64,000 nt of DNA from a virus (Duplodnaviria; Caudoviricetes), in the IMG/VR virus record IMGVR_UViG_3300046662_000041, positions 28,924 to 92,923 of that record; one strand, 5' to 3'. The position numbers and the translations under genes were made by a program. The first letter of the stretch is position 1, and every line of letters begins with the position of its first letter. Of this stretch, positions 16,299 to 51,384 are shown piece after piece. The notes beneath the pieces were generated by a model. The model had not been told where the DNA came from. It did not search any database and worked only from the letters and a program-made list of their open reading frames with translations.

Positions 16299-16479
16299 CT
16301 ATTCCTCTAGTTTCTTCCGCGGCAGATTAAGCGGTTGAGCGTAGACATGCATCACTGGAGATTGTACAGGACCACAAGAGCTGAATTCTGGGGCGTGGCA
16401 CAAATCTGACAGTCGCTCGGCTTCGATTCGTGAACGCGCCGACAAAGCGACAAAAGGCGGCACTCCACGCCCTAGAAAT

Positions 16480-21033: not shown

Positions 21034-21484
21034 TCGGTGCAACGATTAGCGGTTCCTAGGAGCAATCCTTTTGATACTGGGAAAGCAACTCCATCTCGCC
21101 AGGATAGGGAACACGCCGTCAGAATGCCTGGATGCATCGATTAACGCACGTAAATGTCCTATGGTCGCTCAACCGGACACGGGTGCAAATCCCGTCGGCT
21201 CCACCAACTTGCTTCCGCGTCAGATGAGCCGAAACTACTCTACGGAGAGACGGTCGCTGGCGGGAGCAAGACTGCGGGGCCGAACTAGATTCGACGGGTG
21301 AGATCGATGGTAGGAAGCTCGTGCCGACAATGGCCACCGTCGCTAATCGTGGACCAAACAATAAAAGCGAAGCGAATGCTCGCGAAGGTGATCGCGTTTG
21401 TCGAGGCTCCGGTGCGCTCATACGCCCCGGTCGCAGTGGCAGCGTAAATTGCCGGTGGAGGCTGCCCGAAAAGGTGGCCTCCGC
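21034..21484 (+). ncRNA. ssrA: Circularly permuted (two-piece) tmRNA: acceptor piece ~21034-21206, intervening segment 21207-21275, coding piece from 21276
   Basis: T-arm and acceptor 3' end ACGGGTGCAAATCCCGT-CGGCTCC-ACCA (ends 21206) precedes the 5' end GGGGCCG-AACTAGATTCGAC (21276). 7-bp acceptor stem with G3.U70, P2 pairing, PK1 (CGAC/GTCG + CCAC/GTGG), and tag ORF 21367-21447 ending VAVAA*. Confidence 0.93.
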
Positions 21485-21490
21485 ACTTCT
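21455..21490 (+). terminator. Hairpin ending the tmRNA coding piece (intrinsic terminator or 3' stem)
   Basis: GTGGAGGCTGCC-CGAAAA-GGTGGCCTCCGC followed by ACTTCTT. Confidence 0.65.
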
Positions 21491-21511
21491 TGTCAAGTAA
21501 ATACACAAAAC

Positions 21512-21540
21512 TTGACATAATGCTTGTGATTCTGGATGAT
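21512..21540 (+). promoter_or_regulatory. Promoter for the nitrilase-polA operon (leaderless start)
   Basis: TTGACA-N17-GATGAT with ATG 7 nt downstream; the -35 is part of inverted repeat TGTCAAG-N13-CTTGACA. Confidence 0.55.
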
Positions 21541-50020: not shown

Positions 50021-50040
50021 CAAAGTTGAGCAGCACTCCT

Positions 50041-51384
50041 TTAGGAGTGTTGCTGCAGGATGTTGACCGGGTGCGTACCCGCGTCCAGGAGCTGCGAATC
50101 AATCCTCGCAAAGCTCACGAAGCCGACCTGACCGAAGTCAGCATAGCGCTCAATCAGTTTCATCACAGCCAGGTCCTTGACCCGACGGGCGGTGAATTTC
50201 TTGAGATCGCCGAACACGATCGTGTTCTTGCTGGCGCCGATCTGATCCATAGCCTGATTGATCACGTAAGGATAGCCGTTGATCGTATCGGCTTCCTTGA
50301 CAGAGATGCCGGGCACCCAAAGAGGGCGGCCGTACTTGTCAATGATCTTCTTCAGGGCTGACAACGTTTGGTCATGGAACATATACTTCGCTCCACGACG
50401 ATAGGTTGGGTCAACGCTGTGTTCGAGGTTGACGAGATCGGAATAACCGATACTATTCACACCGGTCTGCGCACCGCCAGTCGACTCCGAAGAGCCGGCA
50501 GCGATGATCGGTGTTGCACCGGAGGCCAAGGTGGCCGTTATGATTCCAGTCGGTCCGGACGTGCCGGCGCCAGTGGTCAACTGAGCTTCCAAACCACGGC
50601 CCCAACGTTCTGCAAACCGCGCAGTCAGCCACGCTTCGAGATCGAACGCACTGTCCTGCAGCAATTCCAACGAGCAGCGAACCACACCTGACGTCATCTT
50701 CCAGGCGCCAAATATGATCTGACTGGCCGTCGCGTCTTGCTCAGCAACTTGCGTCGACTCGCCGATCAGCGTCGCGACTTGCGTCGTGTCGTTGCTGGTC
50801 GGGTAAGGCAGAGGCTGTCCGGTAGCGGTGTCCATCACCGTAATGACAGAGCCATCCAAGAGAGGAGCAAAATACTTGGTGGCTTGTTCGATGGCGTTGA
50901 CGAAGCCAGTCGGAACGAAGAAGCCCAAGCCTGAATACGTGCCGATGTGATTCGTGATCGGTACGCCTTCGTTCTCGTCTCGTTTTTCAACGATGCCCTT
51001 TTCGTAATCAATGCCGCGTTGAAGGGCTTCCATAACCTTGGCATTGCGGTGGCCCCATCCACCATTCTCAGGCATCTGACCGCGCCGGAGTACTTCGACG
51101 AAGGCATTGCGGTATTCGGCAACGCGATCTTCGAATTTGACTTCGCGCTTTTCGGTGCTAGGAACGATTGGAGTAGTTCCGCCAGGATTTGAGGCCCGAA
51201 TTTCGGCTTCAATGGCGTCTGCACGCTCGATGTTTTTGATGTCAACGCCGAGAGTGTCAACTTCTTTCATAAATGAATCGTAGCCCGACCGAGTCTCGGT
51301 CGTCTGCGGGGTGGCCTTCAGGAATTCAACCGCCTTGGCATGAGCCGCGGCGCGCTGTTCCTTGAGCTCTTTAAGTTTGCTCAT
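50041..51384 (-). CDS. Major capsid protein, HK97 fold
   Basis: N-terminal delta coiled coil; GFFVP; SLELLQDSAFDLE; DKYGRPLW; FGDL; ERYADFGQVGF. Confidence 0.95.
   Translation of the reverse strand: MSKLKELKEQRAAAHAKAVEFLKATPQTTETRSGYDSFMKEVDTLGVDIKNIERADAIEAEIRASNPGGTTPIVPSTEKREVKFEDRVAEYRNAFVEVLRRGQMPENGGWGHRNAKVMEALQRGIDYEKGIVEKRDENEGVPITNHIGTYSGLGFFVPTGFVNAIEQATKYFAPLLDGSVITVMDTATGQPLPYPTSNDTTQVATLIGESTQVAEQDATASQIIFGAWKMTSGVVRCSLELLQDSAFDLEAWLTARFAERWGRGLEAQLTTGAGTSGPTGIITATLASGATPIIAAGSSESTGGAQTGVNSIGYSDLVNLEHSVDPTYRRGAKYMFHDQTLSALKKIIDKYGRPLWVPGISVKEADTINGYPYVINQAMDQIGASKNTIVFGDLKKFTARRVKDLAVMKLIERYADFGQVGFVSFARIDSQLLDAGTHPVNILQQHS

Follow-up and report, generated by a model that had tools for sequence, protein, structure and literature searches.

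A circularly permuted tmRNA with a long, basic tag and an alpha-like degron in an uncultured phage

Introduction

When the tag of a phage tmRNA carries a host-type degron but has a long, basic segment where the adaptor-binding head is expected, is this still a tool for the ordinary rescue of stalled ribosomes, or has the tag acquired another reader? The locus that is described here raises this question and offers a natural experiment, in which the part of the tag that is important for a phage might be recognised. In ordinary tags, the ANDN-type head is the part that is bound by an adaptor (SspB). The roles that have been proposed for the phage tmRNAs are to keep the hijacked ribosomes running or to destroy proteins selectively (PMC9004378). 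Two-piece tmRNAs accounted for 53 of the 133 unique phage tmRNAs in the same survey, most of them aquatic (PMC9004378), and the commonest tag length in the tmRNA database is 10 amino acids (PMC11915505).

The window, i.e., the whole stretch of 64,000 nucleotides that was analysed, comprises bases 28924-92923 of the 92,923-bp IMG/VR virus record IMGVR_UViG_3300046662_000041, the completeness of which is estimated at 83%. A first-pass annotation, which was made from the sequence alone, had noticed an unusually long and basic tmRNA tag in this window. In this study, the gene, its parts and its tag were compared with the covariance models of Rfam, with a set of viral relatives and with the reference phages.

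Results

Identification and anatomy of the two-piece tmRNA

The RNA is a genuine phage-encoded, circularly permuted (two-piece) tmRNA, the complete gene of which occupies positions 21146-21484 (+) of the window. The Rfam model RF04321 (tmRNA_permuted), which has a cut-off of 47 bits, gave an end-to-end match to positions 21146-21447 that scored 91.9 bits, and the only permuted tmRNA that ARAGORN called in the window spans 21114-21538 (+). A partial match to RF01849 (alpha_tmRNA; model positions 40-236 of 355) scored 50.1 bits, the cut-off of this model being 50, and RF01850 (beta_tmRNA), which was run with laxer filters, missed its cut-off with 47 bits against 84. Because the permuted model is matched strongly and the alpha and beta models only weakly, the gene encodes a two-piece tmRNA that fits poorly to any of the bacterial subtypes.

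The halves of the gene stand in the permuted order, with the CCA ending at 21206, the 5' GGGG beginning at 21276 and 69 nt between them. The tRNA-like domain is intact and has a 7-bp acceptor stem with G3:U70, a T-arm and a discriminator A that is followed by CCA, and the whole region folded better than 100 of 100 shuffled sequences (z = -4.19). The intervening segment forms a long hairpin in both the MFE and the centroid folds and is presumably excised when the precursor matures; the corresponding segments of the viral relatives are 11-174 nt long. Seven bases past the stop codon there is a terminator-like hairpin, with which the coding piece probably ends on its 3' side. All of the elements are listed in Table 1.

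Table 1. Elements of the permuted tmRNA gene with their positions in the window and the basis of each assignment
Element	Position	Strand	Sequence or detail	Basis
Acceptor piece	21146-21206	+	3' half of the tRNA-like domain	RF04321 alignment, fold z-score -4.19
Helix 2, 3' strand	21146-21150	+	outer GCACG	RF04321 alignment
T-arm	21179-21183, 21184-21190, 21191-21195	+	ACGGG, loop UGCAAAU, CCCGU	RF04321 alignment
Acceptor stem, 3' strand	21196-21202	+	CGGCUCC	RF04321 alignment
Discriminator and encoded CCA	21203, 21204-21206	+	A, CCA	RF04321 alignment
Intervening segment	21207-21275	+	69 nt, from CCA to the mature 5' end	acceptor-stem-loop insert in the Rfam alignment
Start of the coding piece	21276-21324	+		RF04321 alignment
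Acceptor stem, 5' strand	21276-21282	+	GGGGCCG, pairs with CGGCUCC, G3 with U70	read from the sequence
D-loop-like segment	21283-21295	+	AACUAGAUUCGAC	RF04321 alignment
Helix 2, 5' strand	21320-21324	+	ends in CGUGC	pairs with GCACG 21146-21150
PK1-like pseudoknot	21325-21354	+		stem 1 Rfam consensus, stem 2 inspection
PK1 stem 1	21325-21328, 21339-21342	+	CGAC / GUCG	hairpin in the Rfam consensus
PK1 stem 2 (putative)	21334-21337, 21349-21352	+	CCAC / GUGG	inspection of one sequence
Single-stranded A-rich spacer	21355-21366	+	CAAACAAUAAAA, 12 nt, carries U(-5)A(-4)A(-3)A(-2)	motif in the viral relatives
Tag frame	21367-21447	+	resume codon GCG, 26 codons, UAA at 21445-21447	ORF and Rfam alignments
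Terminal hairpin	21455-21484	+	12 bp, then ACUUCUUGU	terminator scan, alignment with L124, L126 and L130

Location in the phage genome

In the record, the tmRNA lies at 50,037-50,461 of 92,923, i.e., in the middle of the contig with phage genes on both sides, and it is therefore phage-encoded and not a host fragment at the end of a prophage. The gene sits within the replication module of this 93-kb uncultured phage contig. Its neighbours encode a UvrD-type helicase, a D5-like regulator, a nitrilase-fold protein, a family-A DNA polymerase (PolA), an HD phosphohydrolase, RecA and an exonuclease, with the phage regulator genes flanking the tmRNA on one side and the nitrilase-like and PolA genes on the other. 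The primase-helicase and sliding clamp genes are found upstream of this neighbourhood; genes for tail, tape measure, capsid, protease, portal and terminase follow at a greater distance on the contig. Attempts to assign a host pointed in several directions: PolA had both roseophage and Pseudanabaena phage relatives, the terminase and capsid proteins pointed to distant proteobacterial phages, and a comparison of RecA was uninformative as to the host.

Other features of the contig were recorded as well. Just past the terminal hairpin of the tmRNA, a promoter-like sequence (TTGACA-17-GATGAT, 21512-21540 (+), 10/12 matches) precedes the nitrilase-like and PolA genes; the scan detected no such site directly upstream of the tmRNA. 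A match to the CyVA-1 RNA motif of Rfam (RF02965, 42.6 bits against a cut-off of 41.4) is located at 16392-16471 (-), between a helicase gene and small minus-strand ORFs. The sole tRNA gene of the phage lies outside the window (G000:C1:9621-9696 (-)) and encodes tRNA-Arg(TCT), the isoacceptor that adjoins the tmRNA in the cyanophages S-CAM1 and S-CAM3.

Genes for SmpB, ClpP and SspB were not found in the phage record, which is 83% complete and may lack an SmpB or protease gene that the phage has. The search for a Clp/AAA+ partner yielded one weak match below the cut-off, outside the window, and a phage-encoded Clp, SspB or SmpB partner was rejected as a candidate. No link between the tmRNA and a defence context was seen.

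Resume codon and reading frame

Both RF04321 and RF01849 placed their consensus resume codon GCa on GCG 21367-21369, from which a frame of 26 codons, AKRMLAKVIAFVEAPVRSYAPVAVAA, extends to the stop codon TAA at 21445-21447; each of the remaining two frames is either interrupted early or has no degron at its end. By chance alone, an open stretch of this length would be expected with a probability of roughly 0.3, which is not significant. The frame is nonetheless not a product of chance because APVAVAA followed by a stop is the tail of other tmRNA tags.

The context of the resume codon was assessed against a set of 47 distinct viral permuted tmRNAs with Ala-start tags, which were taken from loci that share the T-loop. 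In this set, U was found at position -5 in 45/47, A at -4 in 47/47, A at -3 in 44/47 and A at -2 in 38/47, and position -1 was mostly U or C. The UAAAA that precedes GCG 21367 fits this U(-5)A(-4)A(-3)A(-2) pattern, with an A at -1 that is rare among the viral relatives (1/47). ARAGORN set the start of the tag at GTG 21349, six codons upstream in the same frame and in the putative 3' strand of PK1, and its calls for two of the loci (L039 and L044) had upstream extensions of an apparently similar kind. The frame from GCG 21367 to TAA 21445-21447 with its VAVAA ending, as the first-pass annotation had read it, was thus borne out by the ORF and by the two Rfam alignments, and GCG as the resume codon by both of the models together with the UAAA context of the viral relatives.

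Composition of the tag

The tag is composed of an Ala, 17 inserted basic and hydrophobic residues and the standard tail YAPVAVAA. After the first Ala, the inserted head, KRMLAKVIAFVEAPVRS, takes the place of the usual NDN. The tag begins with AKRMLAK, contains neither Asn nor Asp along its entire length, has a net charge of +3 from four basic residues and a single acidic one, and includes a Met in its interior. The canonical Ala-Asn-Asp/Asn head is therefore absent; in the viral set, 45/47 tags begin with AN or AAN and one with AEN. At the C-terminus, VAVAA is a hydrophobic-Ala-Ala degron. The last eight residues, YAPVAVAA, are the same as the end of the alpha-type tag ANDNYAPVAVAA (L126), and the last seven as those of ANDNRAPVAVAA, ANNNHAPVAVAA and a tag that ends in NFAPVAVAA, which all belong to alpha-type permuted tmRNAs on IMG/VR contigs. 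In total, the last seven or eight residues were identical at the alpha-type loci L124, L126, L128 and L130. Both of the earlier observations on the composition, namely that the C-terminal degron is kept and that a basic segment with an internal Met stands where the ANDN-type head is missing, agree with these identities and residue counts.

No source of the inserted residues was found elsewhere in the phage, and the idea that the tag had been copied from another place in it was rejected. Weak internal repeats are present in the tag gene, with GCGAAG and APV each occurring twice. An amphipathic helix in the head was considered, but the hydrophobic moment of 0.58 did not differ significantly from that of shuffled sequences (p about 0.15), and therefore no such helix is claimed. 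As a separate observation, an ordinary protein gene of a 263-kb jumbo viral contig (IMGVR_UViG_3300046513_000221, L125:2425-2448 (-)) ends in KPAPVAVAA and a stop codon, so that the natural C-terminus of its product is the same as the degron tail of the tmRNA.

Length of the tag in relation to precedents

With 26 codons, the tag is a clear outlier from the 47 distinct viral permuted tmRNAs, in which the length is 9-15 codons with a median of 11, and from the 10 amino acids that are commonest in the tmRNA database (PMC11915505). Its lack of Asn and Asp sets it apart as well. When ARAGORN was applied to the reference phages, however, the tags were 25 codons long in Bxz1, 19 in S-CRM01, about 19 in phiCbK, 10 in HTVC008M and up to 21 in S-CAM1 and S-CAM3. 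Tags of 24-25 codons occur in some of the Patescibacteria (CPR bacteria), and a scan for APVAVAA followed by a stop led to a 98.9-kb phage, IMGVR_UViG_3300009506_000009 (G001), with a tag of 30 codons. The tag of S-CRM01 is basic too (net +3), and the cyanophage tags are likewise basic and hydrophobic. The atypical length that was claimed for the tag therefore stands in relation to the viral set, but it is less exceptional than was implied because phage tags of 19-30 codons exist.

Search for homologues

The tmRNA is an orphan in the collections that were searched. Neither blastn with the tmRNA nor tblastn with the tag peptide matched GenBank phages. Exact searches of IMG/VR with a 23-mer of the 5' tRNA-like domain and with a 26-mer of the T-arm and acceptor found nothing, and neither did a degenerate pattern of the tag head (resume context plus AKRMLAK) in IMG/VR or a combined T-arm and D-loop pattern in the JGI metagenomes. 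An exact 32-nt match to the T-arm/acceptor was present in 0 of the 185,579 GTDB species genomes. The antisense ORF of 159 aa that overlies the tmRNA gene, which might have been called as a spurious gene in relatives, had no match at the protein level.

A looser T-arm pattern found at least 119 IMG/VR loci, 75 of which had permuted tmRNAs, and what these have in common with the tmRNA of the window is the T-arm only. The motif can be written as GGAC..GGGUGCAAAUCCC..C..CUCCACCA, and among the IMG/VR contigs (L004-L122), its GGAC prefix was present in 71 of the 75 that have permuted tmRNAs. In the 185,579 bacterial species genomes of GTDB, the motif occurred in just 61 places (L138-L198), nearly all of which were one-piece tmRNAs from Elusimicrobiota, Acidobacteriota, Patescibacteria and Sumerlaeota. 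As far as the searched data go, permuted tmRNAs with this type of T-loop look virus-specific. Two of the GTDB matches, on MAG contigs that were labelled Rubritalea (L143) and Flavobacteriales (L172), had the same permuted tmRNA according to ARAGORN, with the odd tag EGGYFPYHLKVAFL, and may be phage contigs that were binned into MAGs.

Relatives of the phage itself were sought with its PolA. Proteins that were 54-67% identical were found on long contigs in the Logan, JGI and ENA collections, the longest of which measure 44-86 kb. A single-protein scan of IMG/VR with PolA gave no match, and the alignment-based scans returned generic PolA, with 38% (IMG/VR) and 31% (metagenomes) as the best identities among the matches listed, none of which had a tmRNA near PolA. 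A scan with one of the PolA relatives (P0011) led to a complete phage of 92,960 bp, IMGVR_UViG_3300021401_000004 (G002), the PolA of which is 40% identical. This phage also has a permuted tmRNA (L371:1501-1768), which is unrelated in sequence and is located elsewhere in the genome. It scored 65.8 bits with Rfam and was missed by ARAGORN; its aligned frame reads ATTKPRAFAAAA and is without the usual UAAA resume context.

Discussion

Proposed mode of action

Based on these features, we favour a reading in which the locus encodes a functional two-piece tmRNA that rescues stalled ribosomes and carries a host-type degron, with a head that is probably a loosely constrained spacer, and we regard this reading as reasonably probable. 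A precursor would probably be transcribed together with the plus-strand early and replication genes, and cleavage would then separate the acceptor piece from the coding piece, with helix 2 keeping the two paired. Charging by the host alanyl-tRNA synthetase can be expected because both G3:U70, which is the alanine identity pair, and CCA are present. As the phage record shows no gene for SmpB, ClpP or SspB, the RNA would use the factors of its host: SmpB and EF-Tu would bring it to ribosomes that had stalled on broken messages, translation would resume at GCG 21367, and 26 encoded residues would be added after the charged Ala before the ribosome reached UAA. The term host-type is used here because the resemblance of YAPVAVAA to the alpha-type tags suggests an alphaproteobacterial-like Ala-Ala degron of the kind that is read by ClpXP. 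With such a degron, the tagged products would be degraded and the ribosomes recycled during infection.

In place of the ANDN head that binds the adaptor, the tag has a front part (Ala plus the 17 inserted residues) that is most probably a spacer under weak constraint and private to this lineage. With tight constraint on the resume context and the tail alone, this part may have drifted or expanded, and the internal repeats (one repeat of GCGAAG and two of APV) hint weakly at growth by small duplications. Such a change would cost the tag its enhancement by an SspB-type adaptor and would not create a new pathway.

Alternative explanations

The head could also have a function of its own. The first-pass annotation had suggested that the RNA may reroute the products of stalled ribosomes towards a different protease or adaptor, or may rescue ribosomes when defence toxins cut the host tmRNA or mRNAs. 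As a selected basic and hydrophobic module, the head might hand the tagged products over to Lon, FtsH or some other protease or adaptor of the phage or the host, or otherwise alter their fate, which would amount to a private phage branch of trans-translation that would perhaps be useful when host defences cut RNAs. That the ANDN head has been replaced entirely, that long tags recur in phage tmRNAs and that the cyanophage tags are also basic and hydrophobic (net +3 in S-CRM01) would be in line with selection, and in Mollicutes, the long mf-SsrA tag pairs with a different protease, Lon (PMC9382460). However, neither a protease nor an adaptor that could serve as a phage-encoded partner was found in the record, the amphipathic signal was not significant, and a similar peptide was not found in GenBank phages or IMG/VR. 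Moreover, the canonical ClpX-type tail has been retained, which argues for the ordinary route of degradation. We therefore consider a selected head to be unlikely. The bolder form of this proposal, in which the 17 residues are a phage-private signal that changes the reader of the tag, be it a host protease, an adaptor or the membrane, so that the phage controls the fate of the products of ribosomes that stall during infection, for instance when defence RNases have cut the messages, and keeps the Ala-Ala tail as a fallback, appears decidedly doubtful.

The other alternatives question the tag, the RNA or its origin. Tagging might start at GTG 21349, which would give 32 residues in the same frame and is preceded by UAAUC that also fits U(-5)A(-4)A(-3), or at one of the in-frame Ala codons at 21382, 21394, 21406 and 21424, which would bring the tag down to an ordinary length, as in APVRSYAPVAVAA. 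Yet the resume codon falls on 21367 in the alignments to two Rfam models, GTG 21349 is not an Ala codon and lies in the putative stem 2 of PK1, and the downstream Ala codons are at least 27 nt past PK1 and all lack the A at -4 that is present in 47/47 of the relatives, which makes another start improbable. It has also to be considered that the RNA does not tag at all and is a decaying copy, a decoy for the host SmpB or a competitor of the host tmRNA, with a long frame that is accidental. Its orphan status in the searches that were run and the weak scores of the subtype models could be read in this way, and there is a precedent in phage DS6A, in which a tag-less tRNA-like form inhibits the host tmRNA (PMC11915505). 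Against this, every functional element is preserved and the frame closes precisely with a known degron and a stop codon, features that a decaying gene is not expected to keep, and we judge a non-tagging RNA to be highly improbable. As for host DNA, whether as the remnant of an attachment site or as an assembly chimera, the GC content of the tmRNA (60%) is above that of the phage (50.5%), but a high GC content is normal in structured RNAs. The genes for tmRNA are common integration sites of prophages (PMC4383910); this gene, however, is complete and lies mid-contig between phage genes, and its exact 32-nt T-arm/acceptor sequence was absent from all of the 185,579 species genomes, so that a host origin is scarcely credible.

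Significance

Phage two-piece tmRNAs and long phage tags are both already known, and the present RNA is therefore a variant and not a new kind. What is new is an orphan lineage in which a long, basic head that is free of Asn and Asp is joined to an alpha-like tail. As a single orphan sequence, it is of value mainly as a further case of the recurring long tags in phage tmRNAs. Should the head prove to be selected, it would mean a phage-specific route for tagged proteins and possibly an orthogonal degradation tag for synthetic biology, a field that has already obtained one from the tag of Mesoplasma.

Comparison with known systems

The two-piece tmRNAs of the aquatic phages, i.e., Methylophilales phage Melnitz, Pelagibacter phage HTVC008M, Caulobacter phage phiCbK and the Synechococcus phages S-CRM01 and S-CAM1/3 (PMC9004378), share the gene order of acceptor half, intervening segment and coding half with the tmRNA of the window, and they too need no phage SmpB. 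RF04321 matches all of them, with 90.6 bits for HTVC008M, 82.5 for S-CRM01 and 71.4 for phiCbK compared with 91.9 for the window tmRNA; no sequence similarity was found except for the T-arm. The tags differ as well: ANFNEYALAA (10) in HTVC008M and ANNVVKFRRTAVTSLVAAL (19) in S-CRM01 compared with 26 codons and no Asn/Asp head here. In addition, the aquatic-phage genes lie in the tRNA cluster of a large myovirus, whereas the present one lies in the replication module of a 93-kb siphovirus-like phage.

The alpha-type tmRNAs (RF01849, the Caulobacter type) are similar in other respects. The acceptor stem GGGGCCG/CGGCUCC of L124 and L130 is identical, L124, L126 and L130 end in a similar terminal GGAGGC...GCCUCC hairpin that is followed by ACUUC, and the tail APVAVAA is common to both, with the match extending to YAPVAVAA in L126. 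In contrast, the T-loop is UGCAAAU in the window tmRNA and GGCGGUA in the alpha type, the D-loop region is UAGAUUCGACGGG as against UAGGAUCGAC, the structured region that the alpha type has between the stop codon and the terminal hairpin is missing, and the tag has 26 codons without NDN instead of 12 codons.

Among the phage-encoded tmRNAs with long tags, that of the mycobacteriophage Bxz1 (cluster C1) has a tag of about equal length, ATDTDATVTDAEIEAFFAEEAAALV (25 codons), but it is a one-piece RNA from a phage of an actinobacterial host, and its tag has a net charge of -7 rather than +3 and ends in ALV and not in VAA. The phage-borne tmRNA of G001 (L131:1557-1842) shares the APVAVAA ending on its 30-codon tag, ANEPTLADALFSGVQSLAEQLFSAPVAVAA. 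It is, however, a one-piece, unpermuted RNA of 286 nt in a tRNA cluster, the tag is acidic with an ANE head, and the two phages are unrelated (26% identity of PolA); with RF04321, it scored just 14.5 bits, yet it was called by ARAGORN. In the Mollicutes, the longer mf-SsrA tag of Mesoplasma florum is read by Lon (PMC9382460). Like the present tag, it is far longer than that of E. coli, and its extra residues matter to the protease that reads it (PMC9382460). It ends in NYAFA, however, and comes from bacteria without ClpXP, whereas the tag of the window keeps the Ala-Ala that is typical of ClpXP substrates.
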